Shown here one piece after another: positions 979 through 46,072 of a stretch of 64,000 nucleotides of DNA (the stretch's first letter is position 1; each line of letters opens with the position of its first letter). The notes beneath the pieces were generated by a model. The model was not told the DNA's origin. It searched no databases and worked only from the letters and a program-made list of their open reading frames with translations. The DNA is taken from the NCBI GenBank assembly GCA_965197645.1, contig OZ240219.1, forward strand, positions 2,944,001 to 3,008,000. The letters run 5' to 3'. This stretch comes from Dehalococcoidia bacterium. Its GTDB lineage: Bacteria > Chloroflexota > Dehalococcoidia > Plut-88900. The translations under genes were made by a program, and so were the position numbers.

Positions 979-1121
979 GGTTTCTCCCCTTTTCTTGCGG
1001 ATACCGGTCCGATGGACTTGGAGCCTGATTGTCGCACTTGTAGGCGCCCTCTGTCCACCCGGCCGCTCCCCTTGTGTTAGCATGCCCGGTACACATTGAT
1101 TCCTCGAAGGATGGACACGCT

Positions 1122-1898: not shown

Positions 1899-2007
1899 GG
1901 TCCTGTGGGAAACCCTTTGGTGTGCCCCTCAAGCACCCTCATAAAATGTTTACGCCGAACCGGTTGTAGCCGGTTCGGCGTAGTGTTTCCGAGGGTGTCG
2001 GACGGTG

Positions 2008-3087: not shown

Positions 3088-3280
3088 ACGGGCGCCTCCT
3101 CTTGGCTAGGGGGGACTTAGTAACACTTCGAGGTGCGAGGTAATTCTAGAGTGTGACGAATGAGGTGTCAATAGTTGGGAGCACGAACTTGACTTGCTCC
3201 GAGCAACGTGTTAGACAGAGGTCAACGCCCTCGACAGATCCAGGCAGTGTCTGGCTAACGCCTTGAAGGAGGAAGAGGCT

Positions 3281-19000: not shown

Positions 19001-22000
19001 ACGGCGGACGAAACCTCCGACACGGGCGAGAGCGTCAATATCAGCTTCGGGACCAGCCTGCCGTCCCGGGTGACCGAGGGAACCCCGAATGAGGCTACGG
19101 TGACCATCAAGCAGGTGTCCACGCAGTTCAGCCTGGACTGCACCGGGACCGCAGCGGCGTGGTGCGCCGACGTGGGGTTCTCCGACCAGACCGCCGAGAA
19201 CTGGGGCCGGGCCAATCTGCGGTACGGCCGGGGTTTGGACCCGGTGGCCAGCCTGAGCAATGACGTATTTCGGTTCCGGGGCGTGGACTACACCGTCTTG
19301 AGCATGGAATTGCGGCCGGGAACCCACCCGATCATGCCAAATGCATGGAGCAGGTGGCAGCAGGGCTACTCGAGTTTCCGCATAGTCATCAACTGGGGCC
19401 CCAGCTTGCGGGGGGATCCGGTGGAGGAGCACTACCGGGACTGGGTCCTGCACCTGGACGGGCTGGAACTCCCGTTCAAGGACGCCTTTGTGTATAGGAA
19501 CAACTTCACGTGGGTGGGGGCGGAGTTCCAGCAGATCTTCAACGACTGGACCCCATCGACGGTGACCAAGGTAGGCATCGAAGAGGTGGCGGTGGCAGAT
19601 CAGGACACCAATCCGCTGCTGCCATGGGCGCCGATGCAGGTGGATGCAACGCCCGAAGGACCCAACGGGCTCCGGATAGATTGGGCCAAGCCGGCTTGGT
19701 ACACTCCCGGGCTAAACCTTCCCGGACTGCCAGAGCCAACCAAATATATCGTCCAGTGGAAGCTGGCGCCGGTAGGCTGGGGTGATAGCGCCGACGTGTC
19801 GCAGCGGGAGATGGCAGCCGGCTCCAATTCCCACTCGTTGACCGTGGATGGTCTGACCGAAGACGCGCTCTACTCGGTGCGCGTCATCGCCGGAAACGAT
19901 GCCGGCGACGGGCCGCCCTCCGAGGAAACGCTGGGCCGCCCGCAGGACGGCGTCATAGCGCTGCTTGCCAAGACGGTGAATGGGCGGACGCTGACGCTGC
20001 GCTTCAGCGAGCGGCTGGATCCGAACGCAGTCCCGGCGGAGACCGACTTCGTGGTCATCGCCGATGGCGGACTGATCGCGGTCGATTCCGTGGCGATCAG
20101 CGGCGATGCGGTCACCCTCACCCTGGACCGGGCCGTAACGGCCGCCAACTCCGTCCTGGCGCGCTACGACAAGCCCACCGATCCGTCGGCAGTGTTCCTG
20201 CGTGACACCGGCGGCGACCACGTGCAGATTCGCCAGCATTTTGAGTTGTTGCGCGCCGTCAACGCGACACCCCAATCGTCGGTGCAGCCGCTGACCGCGC
20301 AATTCGCCAACATGCCGAGCTCTCACGACGGAGCGACCCGTTTCACCTTCGAGATCGAATTCAGCGAGCCGGTCTGGGTGGGCATTGGGCTCCCCAGGGA
20401 CGACATGCTGGAAGTCACGGGGGGCACGGTCATCAGCGCGCCCTGGAAGGACCGGCGCACGGACAAGGTGACCGTCCATGTCCAGCCTGACACCACGGGC
20501 GACATCGTCATTGTCCTGGCCGGCAACCGGGTCTGCGCAGGGATAATCGGCTCCGGCGACCTACCCGATGACCCGGTCGCGGGCGCTCCATGCGCCATCG
20601 GGAACCGTATGCTGACCAACGATTCCACCATGACGATTCCGGGCCCTTCGTCATCAGGCCAGCAAGTTGTGGAGAACACCCCGGCCGAAGGCGAGCCGCG
20701 CATCGATGGAGTCCCGGAGGTGGGGCAGACGCTGTCGGCCGACACCACGGGCATTGTGGACGTCGACGGCCTGGATGACGTTGTCTTCCGATACCAGTGG
20801 CTGGCCGACGGCGCGGTGATCGCCAGCGCCACCGGCGCCACCTACACCGTAGTGTCCGGAGACGTGGGCAAGGCCATCAGGGTGCGGGTCGCCTTCACCG
20901 ATGACGGGGGCAACGAGGAGACGCTGACCAGCGCGCCAACCGTGGTGACGGCGGCGGGCCTGCAGCTCCAGTCGGCCACAGTGGATGGTGTCACCCTGAT
21001 GCTGACCTATAGCGAGGTCCTGGACAACGGGGTCACGCTGGGGACGACTCTCTTCGCCGTGAACGTGAACGGGTCACCCCGGTCGCTCTCCGGCGTCGCG
21101 GTTGGCGGATCCAACGTGCTATTGCTTCTGTCCTCGGCGGTGGAGGCCGGGGACACGGTGACGGTGGACTACACCGCGCCCAACGGCCCCGATTTCATCC
21201 GGGACACCCTCGGCAGGAAGGCGGCCTCCTTCAGCGGGCAGGCGGTGACGAACGACACCGCCGTTTCAGGAGGCGGGAGGTCGGACCCGGCGGAAGCGCC
21301 CGGCGCCCCGGACAGCCTGGAGGTGGTCCGGTATGAGAGCGGCAAGCTGAGGGCCTCCTGGGACGCCCCCGATTCAGACCCCGCTCCCACCGGGTACACC
21401 GTCCAGTGGAAGGAGTCCGCGGACTCCTGGGCGGACTTGGACGACGTCTCCGAGGCCAATGTGAAGGAGACCTCCCACGTCATCACGGGGCTGACCGACG
21501 GCGTGGAGTACGCCGTCCGGGTCATGGCGCGCAAGGGCGACGCCGAAAGCACCCCCTCCGGGGAGGTCGCGGCCACGCCCCAGGAGACGGAGCCGCCCGC
21601 GCCATCGTCGGCCTCGGTGGACGGGGCCACCCTCACCATCATCTTCGACGAGCCTCTGGACCCTGGCGAGACGCCGGCCAAGTCCGCCTTCGCGGTGACC
21701 GCGAGAGACGTCGGCTGGGGCGTGGAAACCGTTGCGGTGTCGGGAAGCGGGGTGACCATCACCCTTGCGGCGGCGGTGTGCGCCGGCGACGCGGTATCGG
21801 TGGGTTACACGGCCCCTGCGGACGCGTCGGCGGTCCGGCTGCAGGACCTGGCGGGCAACGCCGCGGCATCCTTTAGCGAGTGGCAGGTGACCAACAACAC
21901 CGGGGCGGCGGGCCAACTGACTGCGTGCGCCCGCGGCGTGCCGGCATCCCACGACGGGAGTGCCTCATTCACCTTCGAGCTGCGTTTCAGCGAGGAGTTC

Positions 22001-22249
22001 TCCATCAGCTACAGGACCCTGCGGGACCACGCCTTCACGGTGACCGGGGGCGAGGTGGTCAGGGCAAAGCGGCTTGAGAGGGGCAAGAACGTCAGGTGGG
22101 AGATCAGCGTCAGACCGGACGGAAACGGCGCCGTAACCATAACGCTGCCTGTCACGACGGACTGCGAGGACGAGGGTGCCATCTGCACCGGGGACGCCAG
22201 GATGCTGTCCAACCGGGTGGAACTGACCGTCGGCGGTCCAGACGGATAG
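13010..22249 (+). CDS. Giant secreted adhesin-like protein (3079 aa): signal peptide, 13 Calx-beta-like repeats, 2 FN3, SwmB-like and Ig-like repeats
   Basis: TTG start after AAGGAG; signal peptide ending AHA; repeats VxVxF...YxVPEG...DY...LTFNAGETEK...DxxDDDDESV; FN3 (IDWAKP...YIVQWK...GLTEDALYSVRVIA); SwmB-like ATVDGxTLxLxYSExLD. Confidence 0.9.
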   Translation: MTKLVPLLAIMALLMGLPSVAHAQATTPTVSSAAITSNPGTDNTYATGNTVTVSLTFSEAVTITGTPHVVVDIGGQPRNFKYSGDGSSAAAQPFSYTVLVGDKDADGVSLQANSLTLNGGTVQATDDSTNATLTHPAMTFANHKVDTQVTLLSNLGQADASDTITVSATESAKIEIVVAQDKAFDINAITLDVRTPSETLNVTVRLFGGDFADYTYTGSVTAAGLQTFTLSGPPGVSFGNVGWADFGQIYRYQMIVSGSGAGSVELVGTTGTGTDAGGVSGLSIRAVRGETSNPQMRLSGHEGAIPNLMYGDVLSSPPDGTAYAAGDRIAFLFVFSRPVDFPQGITVPFWLGNGAEDRREASLIENLSGYYEDLFFSYTVQPGDTDSDGIFLGADPLGDNAGIDFHTEETAAVPAYLRLAANQLAASQSVNGSGSRTCEEVFCSTVLVGEERVGLEAAIGFSISVNANALPFVPLGASSALSFGYGGEEYVVRELVFLDQAIAALDLRFQNGLPSSHYDRLTLSVDGTLFLLSEASSSSVAVRFQWSDPVLPWAAGDEIDVKLIETATATFDAASYAKTEGDTFEVTVTLGDPFANTLTLPIEVAENGGADATDYTGIPENLVFAPGETVKTFTVTIEDDDFNDDDESLTLSFGEESHIRSGGANETATITITDTDGPQVSVSFGAGTYTVPEGGTQSVTVSLSADPERTVEIRLTHMPQGGAGSTDYSGVPANLTFNAGETEKSFIFTSAQDMEDDDDESVLLGFGTPLPPGVTAGTTSQTTVSITDDDVPQVTVMFLESAYNVPEGGTQSVTVSLSADPERTVEIRLTHMPQGGAGSTDYSGVPANLTFNAGETEKSFIFTSAQDMEDDDDESVLLGFGTLPSMVSAGTPATTTVSITDNDFPEVTVMFGADAYTVPEGGTQSVAVTLSADPERTVVIPLTTMPQGGAGSTDYSGVPANLTFNTGDTEQTITFSATHDTEDDDDESVLLGFGANLPPGVTAGTTSQTTVSITDDDVPQVTVMFLESAYNVPEGGTQSVTVSLSADPERTVEIRLTHMPQGGAGSTDYSGVPANLTFNAGETEKSFIFTSAQDMEDDDDESVLLGFGTLPSMVSAGTPATTTVSITDNDFPEVTVMFGADAYTVLEGGTQSVAVTLSADPERTVVIPLTTMPQGGAGSTDYSGVPANLTFNAGETEKSFVFTSAQDTEDDDDESVLLGFGANLPIRITQGVTNEATVSITDDDDPQVSVSFGAGTYTVPEGGTQSVTVSLSADPERTVEIRLTHMPQGGAGSTDYSGVPANLTFNAGETEKSFIFTSAQDMEDDDDESVLLGFGTPLPPGVTAGTTSQTTVSITDDDVPQVTVMFLESAYNVPEGGTQSVTVSLSADPERTVEIPLTHMPQGGAGSTDYSGVPANLTFNAGETEKSFIFTSAQDMEDDDDESVLLGFGTLPSMVSAGTPATTTVSITDNDFPEVTVMFGADAYTVPEGGTQSVAVTLSADPERTVVIPLTTMPQGGAGSTDYTVPLSVTFNTGDTEQTITFSATHDTEDDDDESVLLGFGANLPIRITQGVANEATVSITDDDDPQVTVSFGAGTYTVPEGGTQLVTVNLSADPERTVVIPLTTMPQGGAGSTDYSVPLSVTFNTGEMSKTITFNATHDTEDDDDESVLLGFGANLPSRVIQGAPNEATVRITDDDDPEVTVMFAQMAYTVPEGGTQSVTVNLSADPERTVVIPLTTMNQGGVDATDYSVPTSVTFNSGQMSKTIMFSATHDTVDDDDESVKMAIGTPLPSRVTQGAPNEATVTITDDDDPFVEVQFAQNSYTVPEGGTQAVTVTLSADPERTVDIPLVATAQGGADITDYSVPLGVIFNSGELSKTITFSATHDTVDDDNESVRLAIGAILPARVSRGATNETTVSITDDDDPHVTVMFAQAGYRVVEGETVAVRVTLSADPERTVTIPLVATGQVGATTDDYSGVPEDLTINAGETSKTFEFMATADETSDTGESVNISFGTSLPSRVTEGTPNEATVTIKQVSTQFSLDCTGTAAAWCADVGFSDQTAENWGRANLRYGRGLDPVASLSNDVFRFRGVDYTVLSMELRPGTHPIMPNAWSRWQQGYSSFRIVINWGPSLRGDPVEEHYRDWVLHLDGLELPFKDAFVYRNNFTWVGAEFQQIFNDWTPSTVTKVGIEEVAVADQDTNPLLPWAPMQVDATPEGPNGLRIDWAKPAWYTPGLNLPGLPEPTKYIVQWKLAPVGWGDSADVSQREMAAGSNSHSLTVDGLTEDALYSVRVIAGNDAGDGPPSEETLGRPQDGVIALLAKTVNGRTLTLRFSERLDPNAVPAETDFVVIADGGLIAVDSVAISGDAVTLTLDRAVTAANSVLARYDKPTDPSAVFLRDTGGDHVQIRQHFELLRAVNATPQSSVQPLTAQFANMPSSHDGATRFTFEIEFSEPVWVGIGLPRDDMLEVTGGTVISAPWKDRRTDKVTVHVQPDTTGDIVIVLAGNRVCAGIIGSGDLPDDPVAGAPCAIGNRMLTNDSTMTIPGPSSSGQQVVENTPAEGEPRIDGVPEVGQTLSADTTGIVDVDGLDDVVFRYQWLADGAVIASATGATYTVVSGDVGKAIRVRVAFTDDGGNEETLTSAPTVVTAAGLQLQSATVDGVTLMLTYSEVLDNGVTLGTTLFAVNVNGSPRSLSGVAVGGSNVLLLLSSAVEAGDTVTVDYTAPNGPDFIRDTLGRKAASFSGQAVTNDTAVSGGGRSDPAEAPGAPDSLEVVRYESGKLRASWDAPDSDPAPTGYTVQWKESADSWADLDDVSEANVKETSHVITGLTDGVEYAVRVMARKGDAESTPSGEVAATPQETEPPAPSSASVDGATLTIIFDEPLDPGETPAKSAFAVTARDVGWGVETVAVSGSGVTITLAAAVCAGDAVSVGYTAPADASAVRLQDLAGNAAASFSEWQVTNNTGAAGQLTACARGVPASHDGSASFTFELRFSEEFSISYRTLRDHAFTVTGGEVVRAKRLERGKNVRWEISVRPDGNGAVTITLPVTTDCEDEGAICTGDARMLSNRVELTVGGPDG
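14710..19110 (+). repeat. Intragenic tandem array of ~340 bp Calx-beta units
   Basis: 13 units counted in the translation. Units 2-9 (about 15040-17765) are near-identical at DNA level in the order A-B-C-B-C'-A-B-C''; terminal units are diverged. Confidence 0.9.
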
Positions 22250-25893: not shown

Positions 25894-28800
25894 ATGACTC
25901 TCACCAGTAGGTCCAGACTCCTTATCCGGTTCACCGTTCTGGCTGCGTTGGCCATAGGCATCGTCATGCTGGCCCTCTCCTCCACCGGCTCGAATACGGT
26001 GGGGGCGCAGCAAGGCACCCTTCCCGATAAGCCCACGGGAGTCGTCGTCACGGCGACGCACGACTCGGTTTCCCTCACATGGGAGGACCCCGCCGACAGC
26101 ACCATCACCCACTATCAGATATTCCGGCGCGACCGCGCCGTCCACGATCCGGGCGAGTTCGTAGAAATAGACTCCAACACCGGCTCGGCGACGACCAGCT
26201 ACACGGATGCCAACGTGGAGCCGGAGGGCAGCTACGTGTACCGGGTGAAGGCGGTCAACCAGCACGGGGCCAGCACGTGGTCCAATTTCGTCCGGGCCGA
26301 CACCCCAGCCGCCCCCACTCCGCCCCCTACGCCGACACCAACACCAACGCCGTTGACCGCCTCGTTCGAGGACGAGGCCGAGACCCACAACGGCGCAGTG
26401 TCCTTCACCTTCCGTATCGAATTCAGCGAGGCCATCTCCATCAGCTACAAGACCCTCCGGGACCACTCCCTGGACGTGACCGACGGGTCAGTTACCCAAG
26501 CCAGGCGGGTGAATGGGAGCAGCAGTCTCTGGGAGATCACTGCCGAGCCCGACTCAGGCGCCGACGTGGCCATCACTCTGCCGGTCACCACCGACTGCGG
26601 CGACCAGGGAGCGGTCTGCACATCCGACGGAAGGAAGCTCTCCAACGAAGTGAAGCTGACCGTGACCGGCCCGGATGCGCCGGAGCCGACACCTACCCCG
26701 CAGCCCAACACACCGGCCACCGGCGTTCCCACCGTCAGCGGCACGGCCCGGGTGGGACAGACGCTGGAGGCGTTCACCAACGGCATATCTGACGCCGACG
26801 GGCTGGACGACGTGGCCTACAGCTACCAGTGGCTGGCTGACAACGCCGACATCGCAGGGGCTATGGGCAAGACCTACACGCTAGTGGCTGCCGACCAGGG
26901 CACGACCATCACGGTCCGTGTGACCTTCGACGACGACGCCAATAACGAAGAATCGCTCACCAGCGTGGCGACGGCCTCCGTCGCCGCGGCATCGGTTCCC
27001 GCCGACGTACAGGAAGCGCCGGCGTTCGCCGAGCGGGGCTACGTCTTCAACCTGGCGGAGAACACCGACGGCAGCACGAACCGGGTGTCGCTGGGCACGG
27101 TCTCGGCGACGGACCCGGAGGGTGCGGCGCTGACCTACAACATCGAGGGCGGCAACGCCTCGGGCCTGTTCGAGATCGACGCCGCGAGCGGTGAGCTGTT
27201 CTACACCGGCGCGGGCGAGGACTACGAGGCGGGCGCGGGGCCGTTCGAGCTGACGGTGCAGGCGAGCGACGGGGACCTCGCCACCCACACGATCGTGGTG
27301 GTCACCGTCAGAGACGTGCAGGAGGCGCCGGCGTTCGCCGAGCAGAGCTACGCCTTCGACCTGGAGGAGAACTCGTACGGCAGCGCGACGTGGGTGTCGC
27401 TGGGCACGGTCGCGGCGACCGATCAGGAGGGCGCGGCGCTGAGCTACAGCATCGAGGGCGGCAACGCCGCAGGGCTGTTCGAGATCGACGCGGCCAGTGG
27501 CGAGCTGTTCTACACCGGCGCGGGCGAGGACTTCGAGGCGGGCACGGGGCCGTTCGACCTGACGGTGCGGGCGAGCGACGGAGACCTCTCGATGGACACC
27601 GCCGTCACCGTCAGCGTCACCGATGTGCAGGAAGCCCCCAAGAGCGTATCCGAGCCCGACGGCGAGGACTTCTCCGCGAACAAATCCACGGACGGCCGGG
27701 TGGCGGTCGGCGACAGCGCCACGGGCGACATCGGCACCCCGAGAGACCGCGACTGGTTCGCCGTCGAGCTGGTGGCGGGCGGGGAGTACAGGTTCGACCT
27801 GATGGGCAGCCCGACGGGCGACGGCACGCTGTTCGATCCCGATCTGCGCGGCATCTACAACAACAAAGGGAGATTCATCCGAGGAACGATGGACGAGGAC
27901 GGCGGCACGGGCTTTAACAGCCGGGAGACGTTCACGCCGGACCAGGATGGCACCTACTACGTGGCAGCAGGCGGCCACGGAAGAGAGCAGGGCACTTACA
28001 CGCTGTCGGTGACGCTAGTGGAGGCGCCGCCGGTCAAGGGTATTGAGGTGGCGGACGCCGAGGCAACCGAAGGCTTGGACGCGCAGATCCTGTTCCGGGT
28101 GACGCTGGGCCGCGCCCCGTCCGAGCCGGTGACGGTCAGCTACGCCACGGCGGACGGGACGGCGGTAGCGGGGGAGGACTATGAAGCGACCTCCGGCACG
28201 CTGACCTTCGCCGCCGGCGAGACCGAGCAGACGGTGGCCGTGACGATCATCGACGATGCGGTGGAGGACAGCGGCGAGACGTTCCGGCTCGTGCTGAGCG
28301 GCCCAGCGGGGGCGGAACTGGCGGATGCCGAGGCGACCGGCACGATCCTGAACATCGACGAGTCGGTCTCCGAGGGGAGCTCCGACCTGCCCGCCGACAC
28401 CTCGACGAGCGGCGTCGTGGCGTTGGGCGGGTCGGCCACGGGAAATATCGCGTCGGAGGAGGACGCGGACTGGTTCAAGGTCGAGTTACAGGTGGGTCAG
28501 ACCTACCAGATTGATCTCGAGGGCTTGCCGACGGGCCAGGGGACGAATGAAGATCCCATTCTGGGCGGCATCTACGATAGGAATGGCGAGCAGATCCCCT
28601 TCTATTGGGACTCTAACAGTGGCAAAGGGACGAACGCCCGCCTGTACTTTCAGCCGGAGGCGAACGGAAATTATTACATCGCGGCCATTAGCAAAGAAAG
28701 AACCTCGCGCTCAGAGGGATCCCCGACCGGAACCTACCGGCTCTCCTTGACGGACGTGACGGATACGGAGATACCCGCCAGCACCGCCACCGCCGCGAGC

Positions 28801-29637
28801 GTCGCCGTGGGCGGCACCGCGACCGGGGAGATCGAGGCGTCGGGCGACCAGAACTGGTTCCGGGTCGAGCTCGATGCCGGCACGACCTACCTGATCGAGC
28901 AGAGGGGCGTCATTGGGTTCCTGGACGACCCGTGGATCATACCCGACGGAACAAGACGTTGCACCAGCTGTGGCTGGGACGAGGACTGGAGGGGAGAAGA
29001 TTTGCCGGACCACGGGACCTTGGTGACCCCGCTCATTCGCGGCATTCGCGACGTGGACGGCAATCTGATCGCGGGCACAGCACAAACCGATTTGCTGATC
29101 TTGTGGCTTCATCACTCCAGCGGCAACGAAAGCAAACCCTACTACGTCGGCCGGGTCGAATTCACCCCGGAGCAGACGGATACCTACTACATCGTCGCCG
29201 GCGCGCACACCGGCTACACGGGCACCTACGAGGTGTCGGTGAAAGAACCAGTATATAGCGCCACCATGACGGCGGGGAGCAGCACAGCCTCTGCAGTCAC
29301 GTTCGGCTGGGACGGCGACAGCACCTTCTTGGAAGGCGATGCCCTCACTGATGCCGATTTCGAGTATGAGAATGAAACGTACGAACTCTCCACCATCCTT
29401 ATCAACACCAACAACGGCAGGCTCGGAATGGTTATTGACGCCACAAACAGTGGCAGCATATCGGACGCGGCCGTCCGTAGTGTCATGGCGCTCCACGTCG
29501 ACGGCGTTGCATTCGCCCTGGGGGATGCTAGCTATACCCTACTGAGCTCCGGCGGACACTCTCTGACCTGGGATAACTCCGGCTTGACCTGGTCTGCCGG
29601 CGATACCGTGCAGTTGGAGATGTGGGTGACCGAGTAG
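25894..29637 (+). CDS. Secreted adhesin-like protein (1247 aa): FN3, Pro/Thr linkers, 2 cadherin repeats, 3 PPC-like domains, Calx-beta
   Basis: RBS AGGAGG; signal peptide; FN3 (VSLTWEDP...YVYRVKAVN); cadherin (EAPAF...LAEN...VSATDPEG...LFEIDAASGEL); PPC-like (DRDWFAVEL...GTYYVAA); Calx-beta (TADGTAVAGEDY...TLTFAAGETE). Confidence 0.9.
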   Translation: MTLTSRSRLLIRFTVLAALAIGIVMLALSSTGSNTVGAQQGTLPDKPTGVVVTATHDSVSLTWEDPADSTITHYQIFRRDRAVHDPGEFVEIDSNTGSATTSYTDANVEPEGSYVYRVKAVNQHGASTWSNFVRADTPAAPTPPPTPTPTPTPLTASFEDEAETHNGAVSFTFRIEFSEAISISYKTLRDHSLDVTDGSVTQARRVNGSSSLWEITAEPDSGADVAITLPVTTDCGDQGAVCTSDGRKLSNEVKLTVTGPDAPEPTPTPQPNTPATGVPTVSGTARVGQTLEAFTNGISDADGLDDVAYSYQWLADNADIAGAMGKTYTLVAADQGTTITVRVTFDDDANNEESLTSVATASVAAASVPADVQEAPAFAERGYVFNLAENTDGSTNRVSLGTVSATDPEGAALTYNIEGGNASGLFEIDAASGELFYTGAGEDYEAGAGPFELTVQASDGDLATHTIVVVTVRDVQEAPAFAEQSYAFDLEENSYGSATWVSLGTVAATDQEGAALSYSIEGGNAAGLFEIDAASGELFYTGAGEDFEAGTGPFDLTVRASDGDLSMDTAVTVSVTDVQEAPKSVSEPDGEDFSANKSTDGRVAVGDSATGDIGTPRDRDWFAVELVAGGEYRFDLMGSPTGDGTLFDPDLRGIYNNKGRFIRGTMDEDGGTGFNSRETFTPDQDGTYYVAAGGHGREQGTYTLSVTLVEAPPVKGIEVADAEATEGLDAQILFRVTLGRAPSEPVTVSYATADGTAVAGEDYEATSGTLTFAAGETEQTVAVTIIDDAVEDSGETFRLVLSGPAGAELADAEATGTILNIDESVSEGSSDLPADTSTSGVVALGGSATGNIASEEDADWFKVELQVGQTYQIDLEGLPTGQGTNEDPILGGIYDRNGEQIPFYWDSNSGKGTNARLYFQPEANGNYYIAAISKERTSRSEGSPTGTYRLSLTDVTDTEIPASTATAASVAVGGTATGEIEASGDQNWFRVELDAGTTYLIEQRGVIGFLDDPWIIPDGTRRCTSCGWDEDWRGEDLPDHGTLVTPLIRGIRDVDGNLIAGTAQTDLLILWLHHSSGNESKPYYVGRVEFTPEQTDTYYIVAGAHTGYTGTYEVSVKEPVYSATMTAGSSTASAVTFGWDGDSTFLEGDALTDADFEYENETYELSTILINTNNGRLGMVIDATNSGSISDAAVRSVMALHVDGVAFALGDASYTLLSSGGHSLTWDNSGLTWSAGDTVQLEMWVTE

Positions 29638-29814: not shown

Positions 29815-30060
29815 ATGCCGAGACAGCGCATACACCACACCAGAGTGACCTACGACTTCCCCGACGACTTCCCTGAGCGGCTCGTGCGGTTCCAGGAGGA
29901 GTCGGGGCTGTCGTGGGCGGAGATCGCCCGTCGACTCGGCATCCATCCCTACACCATGAGGCGCTGGGTCCTGGGCCGGGCACGCCCCAGCATGCGTCAT
30001 ATGATGGCCCTGCTTGAGCTGGCCGAGGAGTTGGGCCTCGCCCACCTGTTCACCGACTGA
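29815..30060 (+). CDS. Small XRE-like HTH protein (MPRQRIHH family)
   Basis: MPRQRIHHTRVTYDFPDDFPERLVRFQEESGLSWAEIARRLGIHPYTMRRW...LAEELGLAHLFTD. Confidence 0.82.
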   Translation: MPRQRIHHTRVTYDFPDDFPERLVRFQEESGLSWAEIARRLGIHPYTMRRWVLGRARPSMRHMMALLELAEELGLAHLFTD

Positions 30061-30124
30061 GCCTGTGCAACAACCCGCGACGGCAGGGCCTGAAACGCAA
30101 AGAAGGCGACACACATGACCGCAA

Positions 30125-30157
30125 GGGGTAGCACACCGAATCGTGGTGTGCTACCCC
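30125..30157. terminator. Perfect 13 bp hairpin between convergent genes (likely terminator)
   Basis: GGGGTAGCACACC-gaatcgt-GGTGTGCTACCCC; no clear U-tract. Confidence 0.6.
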
Positions 30158-30165
30158 CGGACTCT

Positions 30166-31272
30166 CTATGCGGCAGCCGGTTCCGGCTGCTTGAGCATGG
30201 CGGAGTAGCCCGGCATCAGGACGGGCGTCATCGACAACCGGCCCGCGCCGTCGTACCCGGCGCGGTAGGCGTACTCCGCCTTCGCGCCCCAGGGCACCCG
30301 GCCGCCGACCCGGACGGCGGGGCCTCCGGACCTGCCGCGGCGCCCCGGCCCGCCCGCGCCGTGCACCACCATGCCGCTCCGCTCGCCCTTCCGCCAGCCC
30401 AGCACCTTCAGCTCGGCGGGCATGACCCGCTCCTCCGACTTCGCGCGCCGGAACAGCACGGCGTGCAGCCTCTTCAGCACGCCCGCCGACGGGGTGGACT
30501 TGCCGTTCATGATCTGGGAGAGGTACGAGGAGCTGATGCCTGCGCGCCGTGCGACCTCGTTCTGGCTGAACCCGTGAGCGTCCATGTGGTCCCACAGGGC
30601 CTTCGGGTCGACGCAGGCAAGCTGCGCGGACGCGACCGTCGCCTCGGCCTCCAGCGCCGCCTCGACCAGCGCCTGGACCCTCACGCCCATGCTCTGGCGG
30701 CCCCGTGACACCATCGACATGTAGCTGGCGGACACGCCGACCCGCTCGGCCAGCTCCCGCATGGTCATGCCCAGGGCGCGGGCGCGCTCCCGGACGTAGC
30801 TGCTCTGCCCGCTCACCACGCTCGCCGGGCGGTTGGAGCACCGTGCGGGCGCGATCTTGGCCGGGGCCTTGAGCGCCGACTCGATCCGGGTCTGGACCTT
30901 GACGCCCATGTTGACGCGGCCACGGGCCACCCCCGACATGTATCCGTAGGACACCCCGGCGCGGTCGGCCAGGTCCCGCATGGTCAATCCCATCTCGCGG
31001 GCGCGCTCCCGGATGAAGCTGCTCTCGCCGGTCACGGCGCCGCCCTGTCGGTAGACGGTCCCCTGCCCGGGGACCTCTCCCAGGACCGCCATTACCTTCT
31101 GGCGCATCTTGGGAGTCCACGGCCTGCCCCCGTTCGCAAACTGCGACAGGTAGCCCGCGCTCACGCCCATCATGGCCGCGAGCTCCTTCATGGTGAGCCC
31201 CCGCCGCCTCGCCGCAGCCCTGAGCTCGCTCTCCGCCGTCCTCGTTCCGGTTGCCATCGTTGCCGTCGTCAT
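30166..31272 (-). CDS. Protein with four tandem XRE-type HTH domains plus an unknown C-terminal domain
   Basis: GLTMKELAAMMGVSAGYLSQ / GLTMRDLADRAGVSYGYMSG / GMTMRELAERVGVSASYMSM / GFSQNEVARRAGISSSYLSQ; RBS AAGGAGG. Confidence 0.88.
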   Translation of the reverse strand: MTTATMATGTRTAESELRAAARRRGLTMKELAAMMGVSAGYLSQFANGGRPWTPKMRQKVMAVLGEVPGQGTVYRQGGAVTGESSFIRERAREMGLTMRDLADRAGVSYGYMSGVARGRVNMGVKVQTRIESALKAPAKIAPARCSNRPASVVSGQSSYVRERARALGMTMRELAERVGVSASYMSMVSRGRQSMGVRVQALVEAALEAEATVASAQLACVDPKALWDHMDAHGFSQNEVARRAGISSSYLSQIMNGKSTPSAGVLKRLHAVLFRRAKSEERVMPAELKVLGWRKGERSGMVVHGAGGPGRRGRSGGPAVRVGGRVPWGAKAEYAYRAGYDGAGRLSMTPVLMPGYSAMLKQPEPAAA

Positions 31273-31588
31273 CGGTCCGTCCTCCTTCTGTTGTGATGTG
31301 TTGCCTTTGGCCTGCGCCCGCTTGCGGGCAAAGAAGAAGGGCCGTCCCCGATGAACGAGGACGACCCTTGTGAATGGGGATGTGTGGTGAGAGCCGGAGG
31401 CCCCGCCGTCAACGGCGATGGACCTCGTTGACGTGCATAGCCGCCTCCTTTCAGGTGTTGACCCGTGCCGGGCATCCGTGGCGCGGGCCGTTCGTGATGG
31501 GACTGGTTGACGCTGGACGCACTCCGCCCACGGTCGGATGCCGGACGCGGAAGACGGAGGGGGAGTGAGAGAAGACGCAGCTCGGCCC

Positions 31589-31615
31589 AGAGCCTGCCCC
31601 GTACTTGATACGGGG
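31589..31615 (+). repeat. REP-like palindromic element (intergenic copy)
   Basis: AGAGCCTGCCCCGTACTTGATACGGGG; 24/27 identical to the reverse complement of 39496-39522. Confidence 0.8.
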
Positions 31616-31943
31616 GTGATTCGTCGGGGAATCGACTCCGGGGGAGCTGCTATGAGGGGAGCGGCCGGCCTACGACTTCATCGCAGACCAGCGCATGAGA
31701 GAAGACGCAGTTCGCGCAGGGCGCAAAACGTCCGTGGGGGAAGCTGCGAGGCGTGAAGCGGCCAGCCTGCTCGGAACGGCAGACCGGCGCATGTCGAAGG
31801 TGCGGCCCGGCTCCGTGTCAGCCATGCCGCGGGCATGAGGAGCCGGTCGGGGCGACAGACCTGTCTGCAAGAGGCAGGCGCACTCCGACCGACTGGTTGA
31901 GGACGAGGCGCGGGGAGCGCTCCGTCCCTGGTGCCCAGCGGGA

Positions 31944-32178
31944 GAAGCGATCAACTCCAAGCGCCGGACCAGAGTCCAGCGGGAGAAGCGATCAACCCCA
32001 GCCGCCAGACCGGTGCCCGACGTGTGAAGCGATCAACTCCAACGCGCCGGACGGGTGTCCAGCGGGCGAAGGACCAACGTCAACTCCGACCCGCAGGACT
32101 GGACCGATGACGAAGGACCAGCGTCAACTCCGTCGTTTCGGCCCGCGCTGCCTGCGAAGGACCAACGTCAAACTCCGC
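31944..32178 (-). repeat. Six-unit tandem hairpin array (41-44 bp period), candidate structured RNA or ssDNA element
   Basis: GAAGCGATCAAC(T/C)CC at 31944, 31985, 32026; GAAGGACCA(A/G)CGTCAA(A)CTCC at 32068, 32112, 32156. Stems pair via G-T only on the minus strand. Confidence 0.85.
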
Positions 32179-32400
32179 TTCAGCAGCATTCCCTCTTGGG
32201 CGACTCTACGGTCATGCCCGTGCAACAGGGAGATCACGCACCCAGGTTTCTATGGCGGGAAACCTTGGAGAAAGCCAAACAGTGAAGTCATTATCGCCGC
32301 GCACGACGCCGCAGGAGAGGGCCGGGGAGACCCCTTTGCCGAAACTGCCGCCAAATCGTTCACAAAAGTTAAGTGGCAACCCCGTGACCGCCCGGACCGG

Positions 32401-33243
32401 CTACCGCCACAACAGTCCGAAGGTCAGCCTGTTCAGAAGCTCCCGCTTTCTGATCGCTCTCCGCGTGTCGAAGAGCGCGGTCCTGCGCCAGTTGGTCTGC
32501 CCGCTCCGGTCCAGGCCCCGGAGGGGCTGCCTCTCCGGGGGAAGCGTCATGTCGTGCTCTTCCAGCAGCGTCAGCTCCACCGCCAGCAAACGCTCCTTCT
32601 CCGCCAGCCACGCAAGGCCCCTGCCCTTCGTGGAGTGCGAGTCCTTCAGCCCCCGCCACTCGACGACCAGCGGAAAGGCGTCGCCGAACACATCCTCGTC
32701 GTCGGGGGCGGGCTCCCGCGTCACGAGGTCGGGGTACTCCCGCCGCACCCTCGGCCTCGACGCAGGCTTCCTTCCGCCGTCCGGCGCACCGGCCTCCGAT
32801 TTGCCTGAACCTGGCTGGGAGCGACCGGCGCCGGCATGACCGGCCCCGGTCCCCTGGGCGCCGCTTCGCTTCAACGCTCCGACCTCGCCCTCGACGGCTG
32901 CCATCCTCCTGCGCATCTCCTTGCCCAGCGCATCCACCTCGCTCGCCAGCCCCTTCTCCAGCGCCTCGACCCGTTCCTCCAGCCCGTCGTTGCGCTCCCG
33001 CTGACGTGCCGCCGCCGACCCGACGCCCTCCTGCAACGCACGCTCCAGGGCGTGACGCGCCCGCCGGGACAGCCTCCCGGTCGTCGCGCAGGTGGTCACC
33101 GTCCGGCGGTCCAACTCCAGCACCCGCGCCGCGCCTCTGTAGCCCTTCTCCCGCACCAGCTCTTGCAGCAGCGTCATCAGCCGCATGTGGTGCACGTTCT
33201 CAACGTCCCTGCTCTTCTCGATGCCGTGCTCCGTGGTTCTCAT
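32401..33243 (-). CDS. Hypothetical ICE protein (N-terminal HTH-like region, coiled coil)
   Basis: Long ORF with GAAGGAGG RBS; KGYRGAARVLELDRRTV HTH-like segment; LEERVEALEKGL coiled coil. Confidence 0.7.
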   Translation of the reverse strand: MRTTEHGIEKSRDVENVHHMRLMTLLQELVREKGYRGAARVLELDRRTVTTCATTGRLSRRARHALERALQEGVGSAAARQRERNDGLEERVEALEKGLASEVDALGKEMRRRMAAVEGEVGALKRSGAQGTGAGHAGAGRSQPGSGKSEAGAPDGGRKPASRPRVRREYPDLVTREPAPDDEDVFGDAFPLVVEWRGLKDSHSTKGRGLAWLAEKERLLAVELTLLEEHDMTLPPERQPLRGLDRSGQTNWRRTALFDTRRAIRKRELLNRLTFGLLWR

Positions 33244-33569
33244 GGCTCATCCTCCTTCTCTCGACTCGACCATAGCCTCCGACCCCGATTCCGGCCCCTC
33301 TCGACCCCTGGCACAAAAACGGGCCACTCAGGAAGGGGCTATGTGCCAGAGGCCCCGCACCGGCAGTGGCACAAAATGGCCCGTTCCAAGCTGCGACTTG
33401 TACCAGCCGACCGGAACCGGCCCTTTCACAAAGTGTTCACTGATTACCCTCCTGTAGGGGGGGAGATGTACCACCTTCCAGGTAGGAAATGACCCACATG
33501 CACCACTCCGGTACAAAACCCCTTTTCCTGTACACCCCCAATACTGCACGAAAAAGTCCGCCGAAAAGA

Positions 33570-33652
33570 GGGCCTATAAGGGCGCGCAAGTGTGCGCGGC
33601 CCTATGGGGGAGCGGGCCTATGAGGGCGCGCAGAAGTGCGCGGCCCTATGGG
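33570..33652. repeat. Tandem 39 bp duplicated hairpin upstream of the tra operon (candidate oriT/operator)
   Basis: GGGCCTATAAGGGCGCGCAAGTGTGCGCGGCCCTATGGG (33570) and GGGCCTATGAGGGCGCGCAGAAGTGCGCGGCCCTATGGG (33614). Confidence 0.75.
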
Positions 33653-33731
33653 AGGTCTTTTTTCTCGTTTGATTTGTTCACACTCTTTTGCGAATGCCGC
33701 GGTCCGGTGAACCGCAGCAAACCGCAGGGAG

Positions 33732-34355
33732 GTGAACGAGTTGGCGCTGAAATCGAAACTCCGGTCCGCAAGGCGGCTACTGCCCCTGGCATCCGCGCTG
33801 CTACTGGCGGCGCTCCTGGCAATCCCCGCTAGCAACTTAGCCCTGGCTCAAGCCCCGCCCGGCGACGAGCTGACCCTCGTCAACGCCGAGCGGGATTTCG
33901 TCGAGCGCAAGGGCGGCGGCGAGTTCGTGGCACGCCCCGTCTTCGACCGCAAGATCGTGGACCTCTTCTACGCGGTGAGGGACGCCGACACCGGCGACTG
34001 GATCACCGCCATGTACCGGGTCAAGGGGGGCGAGAAGAAGCGGAGCGACGGCTGGGAATACTCCTGGGAGTACCCCGACCTGGACGAGCACCCCGAGCTC
34101 GACCGCGACCGGGCCTACCTGCTGGTGATGCTGGCCGTGGCCGAGGACGGCAAGCGGGGCGAGTTCTACGCCGTCGTCCCCATCCACCAGCCGGGCCGCA
34201 TCTGGGACAAGATTCTGAGCGCACTCAACCCGGCGCGGTGGGCGAGGGCCTTCGCCGGCTGGGTGATCGAGGGAGTCCACGGGACCCTCTGCGGCGTGGT
34301 GGAGAGAGCGAGCGGCGAGGACGCCGACAACTGCCGGAGGGAGTCCGGCAGATGA
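33732..34355 (+). CDS. Secreted/membrane hypothetical protein, first gene of tra operon
   Basis: GGGAGG-GTG; signal peptide ending ALAQA; ATGA overlap with next gene. Confidence 0.7.
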   Translation: MNELALKSKLRSARRLLPLASALLLAALLAIPASNLALAQAPPGDELTLVNAERDFVERKGGGEFVARPVFDRKIVDLFYAVRDADTGDWITAMYRVKGGEKKRSDGWEYSWEYPDLDEHPELDRDRAYLLVMLAVAEDGKRGEFYAVVPIHQPGRIWDKILSALNPARWARAFAGWVIEGVHGTLCGVVERASGEDADNCRRESGR

Positions 34356-42668: not shown

Positions 42669-44317
42669 GACCCGAAGGATGCGAGGCCCGGCTGCTCCGC
42701 GCCCTGGCGTCCATGCCCTTCCTGGACAGGACGGAGATGGTCGCCGTCACCGGCCGGTCCAGGGGCGCGGTCTACGAGGCTGTCGAGAGGCTGGAAGCCT
42801 CCGGCCTCTGCGCCTCCGTGCTCCACGCCACGGAGCTGGTCCCCCAGGCCCGCAGATTCCACCTCACCGAATCTGGCCTGCGCAGGCTCGCCGAAGAAGA
42901 GGGCATGTCGCTAGACGAGCTGGTGCGCTCCCATCCCGTGTCCGCCCAGTGGCGGCGCAGCCTGATGGAGCGCCTCGACGCCGTGGCCGTCATATATCAC
43001 CTGGCCTCCGCCGTCTCGGACGTGGCCTACCCCATCCGGTTCCGCTGGTACCGCTCCATCCCCCTCGACGCCGCCATGACGCTGCCCGACGGGAGGACCG
43101 TGGGCATCGTCCGGCAGGGACTCACCGCCGACAGGTCGGGCTTCTCCGGGCGGCTCAGGCGGCTGCAAGGCGGCCCCATCCCCGGAACGCTTCTGGTCCT
43201 CATGGCCGACGACGTGCGGCTCAGGCACGCCCGCAGGGTGCTGTCGAACATCGACGTGCCGGCCCTTCTCGCCGTGGAACGCGAGGTGGTGCGAGCCGGG
43301 GCGGACGAGCGGATATGGACGCCCTCGGAGATCAGCGCCGACATCTCCCTGCGCTACGAGCTGGAACGGGCGGCCCCCGGAGGCGGGCTGCCCCACGAGC
43401 CGGAACCCGGACGGGCCGACGCGCCCTCCGACCTTTCCGGCAGGGCAGCGGCGGCGGACATCCCCGACCACATGCTGCCCGTCACCCTCAGCTCCGCCGA
43501 GAAGCGCGCCCTGGACCTGATATCCGATTGGCCCTGGACCGCCCTCGATGAGCTGGCCGGGCTGATGGGCGTGACGCCCCAGAGGGCGTCCCAGGTCGTC
43601 ATACCCCTCGAAGGATTCGGCCTCGCAGCCCGCCACCGCGACAGGGGCGGACGGCTGGCCCTCACCGACCGGGGGCTGGCGCTGCTGGCCCGCAGGGACC
43701 GCACCTCCGTAGTCCTGGCCAGGAGGCGGTGGAGCATCGCCCCGCAGGACCCCGACGCCCCCTTCGAGTGGCGCAACCTGTCCGGCGGCAGGAGCCGCCA
43801 GCTTCTCAGGAACATGGAGCACACCGCCGCCGTCCACGGGTTCCTGGCCGCGCTCACCGCCCAGGCCCCCCTCCTGGGGTGGGAGGTCGTCCAGCTCGAC
43901 CCGCCCAGGAGGGCCTCCCGCCACTTCCGGCACGACGACCGGGCGCGCGCCGTCAACCCCGACGCCTTCGGCGCGCTCAGAAGGGACGAGACTACCTGGC
44001 CCTTCTTCCTGGAGTGGGAGCGCCGCGCCGTGCGGCCCTCAACCATGTCGGAGCGTCTCGCTCCATATCTGCGCTACTACTCATCTCACAGGCCCACCGA
44101 CGACCACGGCGCGAGACCCGCGGTCCTGGTCGTCTTCGACGACGACATCGCCGCCACCCACTTCCTGCGCGTGGCGCGGGAGGAGACCCACGAATCGAGA
44201 GTAAACGTGCCCCTGTGGGTGTCCCACAGGGAGGCCACCGACGCCCTGGGGCCGCTGGGACGCGCATGGCGCTCCCCCGGCGACTGGAACTCGACCCAGG
44301 CCCTGCCGCCTCAATGA
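42665..44317 (+). CDS. Replication-relaxation (Replic_Relax) family protein, probable relaxase, internally duplicated
   Basis: wHTH followed by LLRNMEHTAAVHGFL...VNPDAFG...FFLEWER...RLAPYLRYY...PAVLVVF; ATGA-coupled to VirD4. Confidence 0.78.
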   Translation: MRPEGCEARLLRALASMPFLDRTEMVAVTGRSRGAVYEAVERLEASGLCASVLHATELVPQARRFHLTESGLRRLAEEEGMSLDELVRSHPVSAQWRRSLMERLDAVAVIYHLASAVSDVAYPIRFRWYRSIPLDAAMTLPDGRTVGIVRQGLTADRSGFSGRLRRLQGGPIPGTLLVLMADDVRLRHARRVLSNIDVPALLAVEREVVRAGADERIWTPSEISADISLRYELERAAPGGGLPHEPEPGRADAPSDLSGRAAAADIPDHMLPVTLSSAEKRALDLISDWPWTALDELAGLMGVTPQRASQVVIPLEGFGLAARHRDRGGRLALTDRGLALLARRDRTSVVLARRRWSIAPQDPDAPFEWRNLSGGRSRQLLRNMEHTAAVHGFLAALTAQAPLLGWEVVQLDPPRRASRHFRHDDRARAVNPDAFGALRRDETTWPFFLEWERRAVRPSTMSERLAPYLRYYSSHRPTDDHGARPAVLVVFDDDIAATHFLRVAREETHESRVNVPLWVSHREATDALGPLGRAWRSPGDWNSTQALPPQ

Positions 44318-44337
44318 AAGACGAGGGACGGGAAGAT

Positions 44338-44604
44338 ATGAAACATAAAGACGCCAACCAATCGAAAGGCCCCCGGAGGCGCGGAGGACGGACTGTTGTC
44401 CGGCTCGATACGGCGGCCGTCTGGAAGCGGCTCGCTCTGCTGAACCGCTCCCAGAACTGGCTCGCCAGGGAGATCGGGGTCAGCCCCGGATACGTCTCGA
44501 TGCTGGTCAACACGGGGCGCTCGCCCTCCGGTCGCATCCGCCGCCGGATGCTCAAGGCCCTGGAACTGACCGAGTTCGGAGACCTATTCAGATTGGAGGA
44601 GTAG
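44338..44604 (+). CDS. Cro-like XRE HTH regulator
   Basis: RTVVRLDTAAVWKRLALLNRSQNWLAREIGVSPGYVSMLVNTGRSPSGRIRRRML; paralogue of 8322-8567. Confidence 0.85.
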   Translation: MKHKDANQSKGPRRRGGRTVVRLDTAAVWKRLALLNRSQNWLAREIGVSPGYVSMLVNTGRSPSGRIRRRMLKALELTEFGDLFRLEE

Positions 44605-45857: not shown

Positions 45858-46055
45858 ATGCCCAGAAAGTCCAAGGTCATCAGCTTCTCAATGCCCCCGG
45901 AGATGGCGGAGCAGGTGCAGCAGGTGGTCGACGAGGAGGGCCGCACCGTGAGCGAGTTCCTCCGAGACGCCATCCGCCTGTACATGGACGAACGGGAGTG
46001 GCTGCGGCACGAGCGCCGCCAACGGGCGAAGGCCCGCAGGAACGAACAGGAATGA
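45858..46055 (+). CDS. Ribbon-helix-helix (CopG-like) regulator
   Basis: KVISFSMPPEMAEQVQQVVDEEGRTVSEFLRDAIRLY. Confidence 0.85.
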   Translation: MPRKSKVISFSMPPEMAEQVQQVVDEEGRTVSEFLRDAIRLYMDEREWLRHERRQRAKARRNEQE

Positions 46056-46072
46056 GCAAGGAGGAGGCACCC

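Follow-up and report, generated by a model that had tools for sequence, protein, structure and literature searches.

What are the six tandem repeats that occupy a non-coding gap of an integrative conjugative element (ICE) of the Dehalococcoidia, in which molecule do they fold, and what might they do for the element? The question is raised by a 64,000-nucleotide stretch of DNA from a Dehalococcoidia bacterium (assembly GCA_965197645.1, contig OZ240219.1, positions 2,944,001 to 3,008,000; hereafter, the window), whose genome is a single contig of 3.21 Mb (94.46% complete). The repeats sit in a 1.13 kb gap (31273-32400) between two minus-strand genes, the upstream one coding for a 280-amino-acid (aa) protein and the downstream one for a 368-aa protein with four tandem helix-turn-helix domains (4xHTH). 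An original prediction, made from the sequence alone, had interpreted them as a strand-specific array of covarying hairpins, i.e., as a candidate new system of structured RNA or of single-stranded DNA (ssDNA) paired with the 4xHTH protein. The data reported here reveal a conserved and strand-specific structure of multiple covarying hairpins, one of 37-44 nt per repeat, which behaves like RNA rather than DNA. The best explanation that we can offer, and which we hold tentatively, is that the array represents the tandem hairpin domain of a cis-acting leader of the ICE, which would control transcriptional read-through.

Strand, molecule and fold of the repeats

The spacings originally predicted were recovered by the repeat search, with three copies 41 and 41 bp apart (a fourth at 42 bp) and three others 44 and 44 bp apart; TRF reported a period-41 array at 31930-32078 (score 177), and the units are 63-95% identical to their reference copy. 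The sequence also bears out the two minus-strand readings that had been given, CGGAG-UU(U)-GAC-GYUG-GUC-CUUCG and GGRG-UUGAUCG-CUUC, each in three units, together with the flanking extensions GACGGAG/CUUCGUC and GCGGAG/CUUCGC. The extent first assigned to the array (31944-32178) is approximately right, but the true hairpins are slightly wider (31933-32187). The array thus delimited consists of six hairpins joined by linkers of about 4 nt, with a whole period of 41-44 nt (Table 1). Each unit harbors an outer stem of 8-11 bp, a small internal loop, an inner stem of the GGAG/CUUC type and an apical loop, which reads UUGAUCG or is longer and begins with U(U)GA; the most conserved letters are those of the loop and of the core UUGAUCGC. 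Across homologous units, the loop length ranges from 6 to 14 nt, and the inner GAC/GUC stem of 3 bp contained in the first of the two readings is not conserved, the homologous loops reading UGAUAAGCC, UUGACUUAGCC, UUGACGCAAGGGCC and others. The region 31280-32240 shows no periodicity of the G+C content at third codon positions (GC3), and because of this the open reading frame (ORF) at 31753-32808 of the plus strand, which overlaps the array, was dismissed as coding.

When the region 31880-32300 is folded as RNA, the minus strand reaches -200.6 kcal/mol (z -3.40), with none of 100 shuffles as good, and the plus strand reaches -156.7 kcal/mol (z +0.43), with 61 of 100 shuffles as good. With DNA parameters, the z-score is -0.16 for the minus strand (40 of 100 shuffles as good) and +1.33 for the plus strand. 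These z-scores derive from dinucleotide shuffles and control for composition. Taken singly, all six units of the window fold on the minus strand with -17.5 to -25.4 kcal/mol (z -2.6 to -3.9); on the plus strand, the energies are -7.6 to -19.6 kcal/mol, with z-scores of -0.55 to -1.46 for five units and of -3.50 for unit 3. Nine arrays from other loci gave a mean z-score of -5.65 for the sense strand versus -1.43 for the antisense strand, and for eight of the nine no shuffle out of 30 was as good as the sense strand.

Covariation was evaluated on three alignments: A2, with 53 distinct sequences of the 5' part of the RNA and of the first two units; A3, with 54 distinct units having a 7-nt loop, each counted as a single hairpin from the arms flanking the unit; and A4, with 55 distinct spacers, for the spacer-hairpin count. 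The shuffle figures obtained from them overstate independence, because the sequences compared share descent and duplication, and they are not to be taken as probabilities. On A2, RNAalifold returned, unprompted, two hairpins of the 5' domain (P1 and P2) and two long hairpins corresponding to units 1 and 2, each with an outer and an inner stem. In this structure, 98.9% of the 1908 cells are paired, versus 34-52% with slid partners; changes on both sides occur in 38 cells versus 5.1 expected (0/500 shuffles), and the covariation score is 0.129 versus 0.093 in the shuffles (0/500). The number of pairs with a both-side change is modestly above the control (4 versus 2.1; 2/500), and that of further pair types is not above it (429/500). 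Among the single pairs, columns 48/67 of P2 show a compensatory change (U-A in 41 sequences, G-C in 12), the outer-stem pair 128/161 of unit 1 is C-G in 38 sequences and G-C in nine, and the pair 170/212 of unit 2 is G-C in 17 sequences, G-U in 17 and A-U in 16. P1, whose 8 pairs are formed in 99.8% of the cells of the 53 sequences, gives no covariation to judge because it is nearly invariant. On A3, one hairpin per unit leaves 87.5% of the cells paired (38-52% with slid partners), with 35 both-side-change cells versus 22.2 expected and a covariation score of 0.300 versus 0.252 (0/500 shuffles for both measures); the pairs with a change on both sides, 6 versus 5.3, are not significant (196/500).

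The topology that had been proposed, i.e., unit hairpins alternating with spacer hairpins having an 8 bp stem and a 4 nt loop, has to be replaced. The spacers were said to covary; they are complementary in 86.3% of the cells of A4, but 499 of 500 shuffles are at least as high, and both-side changes number three versus 8.5 expected, each arm covarying with the opposite arm of its own unit. Duplex energies, calculated on 125 units of 44 arrays, point in the same direction: the arms of the same unit reach -15.44 kcal/mol versus -13.95 kcal/mol when permuted (0/2000), and the arms facing each other across a linker reach -12.26 versus -12.89 kcal/mol (1974/2000); in 37 of the 44 arrays the same-unit arms represent the best pairing. 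Both lines of evidence give one long hairpin per repeat.

The mismatches of the array had been described as G-U on the minus strand and C-A on the plus strand, and the homologues confirm this description, with 207 G-U versus 16 A-C cells in A3 and 186 versus 6 in A2. If the alignments are read on the opposite strand, the pairing falls from 87.5% to 64.0% in A3 and from 98.9% to 89.5% in A2. A count of 136 units under symmetric scoring gave 260 G-U versus 87 A-C; part of such a bias arises because the sense strand is A-poor. RNA-specific stability, covariation and the G-U/A-C asymmetry all support a multi-hairpin RNA on the minus strand, and we regard it as very probable that this RNA structure is under selection.

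The same observations bear on the possibility, left by the original prediction, of an ssDNA structure used in conjugation, such as hairpins associated with the origin of transfer (oriT), a single-strand origin or an ssDNA promoter of the leading region. It would suit a type IV secretion element in which no relaxase and no oriT were recognised among the ICE proteins and in the region 22700-47800 (Pfam, NCBIfam and PHROGs scans); in relatives, moreover, the region precedes an operon with a DnaG-like primase, as often happens in leading regions. The DNA-parameter folds reported above disfavour it, the minus strand being equalled by 40 of 100 shuffles and the plus strand being worse still, and so does the share of G-U, which makes up a quarter of the stem cells of A3 (207/810) and would correspond to poor G-T pairs in DNA. 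A -10 box is furthermore conserved upstream of the array in a duplex-readable form. A role as ssDNA is therefore very improbable in our opinion.

The repeats might also be double-stranded DNA (dsDNA) sites, i.e., operators or iterons with a spacing of about four helical turns, to which the 4xHTH protein or the HTH-like domain of the 280-aa protein would bind, the hairpins being a by-product of palindromic half-sites. The spacing of 41-44 bp is in fact near four turns of 10.5 bp, so that the sites would be in helical phase, HTH proteins are encoded on both flanks, and the loop and the core are the most conserved parts of the units. However, the arms covary with their partners instead of holding a fixed sequence; the distance between half-sites follows the variable loop length, unlike a fixed DNA-binding geometry; and G-U is 13 to 31 times commoner than A-C on one strand. 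Moreover, the window has no further exact copy of the core motif, and arrays are present in 18 loci lacking a 4xHTH gene within 4 kb. Covariation, asymmetry and loop length speak against iterons or tandem dsDNA operators, and we consider such sites improbable.

The larger RNA and its occurrence among relatives

The array had been viewed as a stand-alone system; it is instead one domain of a structured RNA of about 0.95 kb with conserved 5' and 3' domains, and in relatives conserved structured sequence borders it on both sides. We infer the transcription of this RNA and its ends from two conserved signals: the RNA would begin about 7-8 nt past a -10-like box and extend to the T-tract of a terminator-like hairpin. 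In 52 of 62 distinct homologous upstream sequences the box matches TATAAT in at least five of six positions, and in the other 10 in four of six. The 5' domain includes P1 and P2, and between the array and the 4xHTH gene there are about 600 nt of further non-coding structured RNA. The first hairpin of this 3' domain is present in all the aligned homologues, with compensatory variants such as GGAACGC/GCGUUCC (read from the alignments, not counted). The terminator-like hairpin lies about 65 nt before the start codon of the 4xHTH gene; a hairpin followed by a T-tract is found upstream of the 4xHTH homologues in 25 of 25 distinct regions, with compensatory stem variants, and an element without 4xHTH (L044) carries the same terminator inside its operon. 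The structured RNA, then, is framed by two conserved signals, the -10 box and the terminator. A putative nine-codon upstream ORF (uORF) lies about 40 nt ahead of this terminator; its ATGCACGT... motif is shared by 18 of 25 distinct 4xHTH-linked loci, and the uORF may act by leader-peptide attenuation.

Contigs covering the array were retrieved from four metatranscriptome runs belonging to two studies (the cover includes X17, X18 and X20), and one RNA-library contig of 739 nt begins at 32276 and extends downstream, a weak hint on the start; being contigs, these data carry neither strand nor level, may include DNA carry-over and are uninformative about the parts left uncovered.

In four RNA libraries, a hairpin of the same region, at 31583-31619 (CCCCGTACTTGATACGGGG), shows a depth spike of 190 to 4080. 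Many contigs whose flanks are unrelated are joined by this hairpin, yet it has only two copies in the genome of the bacterium; it is located within a stretch of about 120-146 bp that is missing from the other copies of the element and is flanked by direct repeats GAGAGAAGACGCAG at ~31567 and ~31688. The spike, at 31510-31710, was rejected as a signal of the RNA studied here, since it comes from a hairpin of about 35 nt common to many unrelated contigs.

Each of the four full copies of the element in the same genome has the array (75-86% identity), as do 6 of 12 genomes of the order. A 211-nt probe (32090-32300), embedding the 5' domain and units 1-2, matched 27 of 401 sampled Dehalococcoidia genomes, distributed over 9 of 222 genera and at least six families. 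The array length changes in steps of about 41 nt and ranges from 2 to 8 units; in 50 distinct arrays there are two units in one case, four in 4, five in 14, six in 23, seven in 6 and eight in 2. Many elements, not including that of the window, have an optional hairpin inserted in the 5' domain, with the loop GGAUGAUUCGCUCUCC. In three distant relatives (L080, L085 and L086), two or three hairpins replace the array downstream of the homologue of the 280-aa protein, with a conserved loop GGAUYGAGCCUYGCUCUCC on covarying stems; the loop similar to it is GGAUGAUUCGCUCUCC, and such loops also occur in relatives of the window element (e.g., L017:1699-1897).

This variability is what would be expected if the array were a slippage-expanded and largely dispensable hairpin domain of a functional leader, in which neither the unit number nor the loops have a specific role; a stable hairpin would be duplicated in tandem, and its pairing would be kept by descent and weak purifying selection. 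The unit number does change fast, from 2 to 8, L088 retains only two units, and the three distant relatives just mentioned carry other hairpins in place of the array. On the other hand, cognate arms covary and the loop is conserved although the flanking protein is only 50-70% identical across elements, which points to selection on every unit, and at least two units are present in all 56 parsed arrays (length up to 420 nt). This account appears quite unlikely to us.

As for the flanking genes, the 280-aa protein is encoded beside the array in 18 of 20 loci found via the array DNA (tblastn; 14 full or near-full matches, 4 partial); L008 and L021 have no match, that of the array in L021 being near the start of the contig. 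The pairing of the array with a 4xHTH protein stands only in part: of the 67 loci retrieved with the 280-aa protein, 37 encode a homologue downstream in the same orientation, but the 18 array loci mentioned above lack it. In four inspected loci of the latter kind (L044:5508-7642, L074:6077-8249, L077:5502-7686 and L068:6384-8029), the genes past the RNA code for a Zn-ribbon/membrane protein of ~160 aa (except in L068, where it was not seen), for a protein of ~157 aa similar at its N-terminus (MTTAT...) to the 4xHTH protein, and for a DnaG-like primase of ~348 aa with zf-CHC2 and Toprim motifs (recognised by eye).

Possible control of read-through, alternatives and known systems

In the mechanism that we propose, the RNA would have a promoter of its own on the minus strand, shortly past the regulator-like gene of the 280-aa protein, and would run into the conserved intrinsic-terminator hairpin, preceded in the window type by the nine-codon uORF. 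This terminator would stand directly before the next gene, i.e., that of the 4xHTH TrbA-like regulator here and the operon of the 157-aa protein and the primase elsewhere. The RNA could then act as a cis-acting leader setting transcription past the terminator, by antitermination or attenuation, and the repeated hairpins might be reiterated modules at which RNA polymerase, an elongation factor or a protein of the element docks. Action in cis on terminator read-through, as well as the role of the hairpins, is what we infer from position and precedent (canT, conAn2 and the pLS20 attenuator); on this analogy, control of read-through is a possible, if still uncertain, job of the RNA. The order of elements is that of a leader RNA, with a conserved -10 box, structured RNA and then an intrinsic terminator, co-transcription being presumed.

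The canT RNA of Tn916 (Firmicutes) is a 452-nt, cis-acting, orientation-specific antiterminator, shown experimentally, which lets transcription pass the terminators of the element (Wirachman & Grossman 2024, PMC11658703). According to the excerpts of that paper considered here, canT, like the window RNA, is an orientation-specific non-coding ICE stretch of several hundred nt, placed past an element promoter and before intrinsic terminators guarding genes; unlike canT, for which these excerpts describe no hairpin array, the window RNA has such an array and leads to a regulator gene and not to a long conjugation operon. The conAn2 regions of pLS20-type plasmids (260-600 bp) let transcription pass terminators and work with the ConAn1 protein (PMC8191782), and the pLS20 operon has a 456-nt leader attenuator of the zipper type, cATT (PMC13401043). 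As far as the available portions of these two reports go, conAn2 and cATT are likewise long structured leader or intergenic RNAs of conjugative elements, with a terminator right after the structured part; unlike the RNA of the window, they head the conjugation operon, and their key features are a GC-rich tract with a stem-loop or one long "zipper" stem. The array of 2-8 reiterated hairpins sets the window RNA apart from both, the comparison being one of descriptions in those portions.

Several points weigh against a leader controlling read-through. Past the 4xHTH gene, the minus strand carries no long operon requiring processive antitermination, and the known antiterminator RNAs, compared with this RNA by description alone, are described without a reiterated hairpin array. 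A consensus scan of 31100-33900 gave no full sigma-70 promoter; the window lacks a good -35 box, whereas many relatives have a reasonable one at 17 bp (by eye). The start, end and strand of the transcript are predicted ones, and contacts of the hairpins with RNA polymerase or a protein are hypothetical. As for the structure itself, the kinship of the compared sequences makes the shuffle statistics overstate independence, and the antisense strands of two arrays, L007 (z -3.85) and L077 (z -3.82), also beat their shuffles.

A different function could be that of a trans-acting sponge or decoy, in which the hairpins titrate a dimeric or multimeric RNA-binding protein, encoded by either host or element, and the copy number sets the capacity. 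CsrB and RsmZ are sponge RNAs of this sort, which titrate CsrA by means of many short hairpins, variable in number, with GGA in the loop. The window RNA shares with them the many reiterated short hairpins in a single RNA and their number, varying from 2 to 8 among close relatives; each unit exposes a conserved apical loop on a covarying stem, and the RNA has its own -10 box and terminator, hence it might be a discrete molecule of about 0.95 kb. Unlike CsrB and RsmZ, however, it has GGA in the stems and not in the loops, GGAG being the 5' strand of the inner stem and the loops reading UUGAUCG or U(U)GA..., and the conserved 5' and 3' domains around the array would be needless for a simple sponge. 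Neither CsrA (PF02599) nor ProQ/FinO (PF04352) was found in the genome of the bacterium, the controls of the PF02599 search having matched in 3 of 14 genomes, and the scans of the ICE proteins (Pfam, NCBIfam and PHROGs) yielded no RNA-binding family. The assignment to the Csr/Rsm sponges was rejected, and a sponge of any kind seems rather unlikely.

Tandem repeats of similar length are also found in ToxI, the RNA of type III toxin-antitoxin systems, where near-identical repeats of ~36-45 nt in one RNA are followed by a terminator and by the gene of the endoribonuclease toxin that processes them. The RNA studied here likewise embeds tandem direct repeats of about this length and is followed by a terminator; unlike those of ToxI, its units differ and covary (only 63-95% identity), and about 600 nt of structured non-coding RNA and then an HTH regulator gene come downstream. 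No toxin-like gene was found among the neighbours scanned (Pfam and NCBIfam), and a ToxI-like system was rejected. A CRISPR array was rejected too, the repeats being separated by linkers of ~4 nt rather than by unique spacers of repeat-like length; no Cas family was found among 26 neighbouring ORFs (Pfam), the remaining genome not having been searched for cas genes. A decoy for the Ssn-type hairpin repeats of the genome was discarded because the repeat at ~739-740 kb has an unrelated sequence. Lastly, cmscan with Rfam 15 over 30000-34000, on both strands and with E <= 1, gave no family match, its sole row being a chance sR53 snoRNA (18.8 bits with a gathering threshold of 49, E 0.36) at 31347-31400 of the plus strand. 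The absence of a known family, as originally claimed, is thus upheld by both the Rfam and the CRISPR tests.

To our knowledge, long cis-acting RNAs gating transcription in conjugative elements have been recognised only recently and only in Firmicutes. Among the best-ranked literature matches listed, there was no description of this RNA or of Dehalococcoidia ICEs. The RNA is of a known kind, a structured leader RNA of a conjugative element; its architecture and phylum are new. If the leader reading is true, the principle of cis-acting gating RNAs would extend to another phylum, in uncultivated Dehalococcoidia, and a structured RNA family with an unusual trait, a tandem hairpin array of variable number, would be added to those known. 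The RNA is, moreover, a compact and highly conserved marker of the ICE family, with several copies per genome and an occurrence in several families of the class, and its corrected fold offers a concrete object for building covariance models, for probing and for reporter work. A bolder version of the same idea, which we consider doubtful, would see here a large (0.75-1 kb) regulatory RNA of a new class, carried by ICEs, in which an array of covarying hairpins, variable in copy number, forms the core and is a multivalent platform, a sort of "rheostat". In that case, the number of hairpins would tune the capture of RNA polymerase or of an RNA-binding factor, setting the expression of establishment or regulator genes, and the RNA would spread with the element between Dehalococcoidia families, being unrelated, both in sequence and in architecture, to the canT, conAn2, put, EAR and Csr-type RNAs.

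The element and its neighbouring features

The features of the RNA, the genes on its sides and the copies of the element are listed in Table 1, in the order in which they are met along the minus strand.

Table 1. Positions of the RNA features and flanking genes (window coordinates) and of the element copies (genome coordinates, Mb)
Feature	Position	Strand	Basis or details
280-aa protein gene, upstream of the array	32401..33243	-	AlphaFold2 model, tblastn
Weak terminator-like hairpin just past the stop codon of the 280-aa gene	32375..32392	-	Terminator scan
-10-like box GATAAT	32290..32295	-	Conserved at the equivalent position in homologues
Structured RNA, approximate extent (~0.95 kb)	31330..32283	-	Ends inferred from conserved -10 and terminator
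P1 hairpin, 5' domain (CCAAGGUUUCC...GAAACCUGGG)	32241..32270	-	Inverted repeat and RNAalifold
P2 hairpin (GUGC...GCAC), conserved UCCCU-containing loop	32220..32240	-	Compensatory change
Hairpin unit 1	32147..32187	-	Outer GCUGC/GCAGC, inner GCGGAG/CUUCGC; -19.0 kcal/mol, z -2.64
Hairpin unit 2	32101..32144	-	Outer GGGCCGA/UCGGUCC, inner GACGGAG/CUUCGUC; -22.9 kcal/mol, z -3.58
Hairpin unit 3	32057..32099	-	12-nt loop type; -25.4 kcal/mol, z -3.88
Hairpin unit 4	32015..32052	-	UUGAUCG loop; -18.8 kcal/mol, z -3.46; in alignment A3
Hairpin unit 5	31974..32010	-	UUGAUCG loop; -18.3 kcal/mol, z -3.27; in alignment A3
Hairpin unit 6	31933..31969	-	UUGAUCG loop; -17.5 kcal/mol, z -2.61
First hairpin of the 3' domain (GGGACGGAGCGC...GCGCCUCGUCC)	31901..31928	-	Alignments
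Nine-codon uORF MHVNEVHRR, strong Shine-Dalgarno, overlapping a strong hairpin	31409..31438	-	Sequence reading
Terminator-like hairpin, 14 pairs, then CUUCUUCUUUG	31337..31369	-	Terminator scan
368-aa protein gene, four tandem Xre/HTH_3 domains (4xHTH)	30166..31272	-	Pfam HTH_3 3.4e-31, HTH_31 4 stretches
Full element copies, own genome	~1.347-1.381, 2.534-2.559, 2.964-2.994 (window), 3.194-3.209 Mb		
Partial element copies, own genome	1.943-1.955 and 3.023-3.036 Mb		

A divergent plus-strand operon, starting from 33732, codes for VirB6-, PrgI-, pilin-, VirB4- and coupling-protein-like products, and a gene for a large serine recombinase is located at 45998-47728; the setting of the array is therefore an ICE of the type IV secretion kind. 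The element is about 25 kb long, and a BLAST search with the region 20000-50000 retrieved about four full and two partial copies in the same genome (70-91% identity).

Regarding the two proteins flanking the RNA, the best NCBIfam match of the 4xHTH protein is TrbA, with 82.2 bits, under the cut-off of 96 bits, and the GC3 of its gene is 0.94. The 280-aa protein has no match in Pfam, NCBIfam or PHROGs; its AlphaFold2 model (mean pLDDT 76.6) shows an N-terminal helical HTH-like domain, a long helix or coiled coil, a disordered linker and a C-terminal helical Arg-rich domain, and with this model Foldseek gave no PDB match at E <= 0.001 and only weak rows of Cro/C-protein-like HTHs.

The same family scans left without an assigned function the ICE proteins encoded at 42679-43551 and 43729-44604. 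Two very large surface-type proteins are encoded on the plus strand, in the left part of the element or next to it: one of 3079 aa, with 13 Calx-beta stretches (13010-22249), and one of 1247 aa, with Calx-beta, cadherin and fn3 domains (25894-29637). Finally, the interval separating the 280-aa gene from the type IV secretion operon contains, at 33556-33650, two tandem palindromic copies of about 45 bp (GGGCCTAT.AGGGCGCGCA....TGCGCGGCCCTATGGG), which are candidate operators of the divergent promoters.

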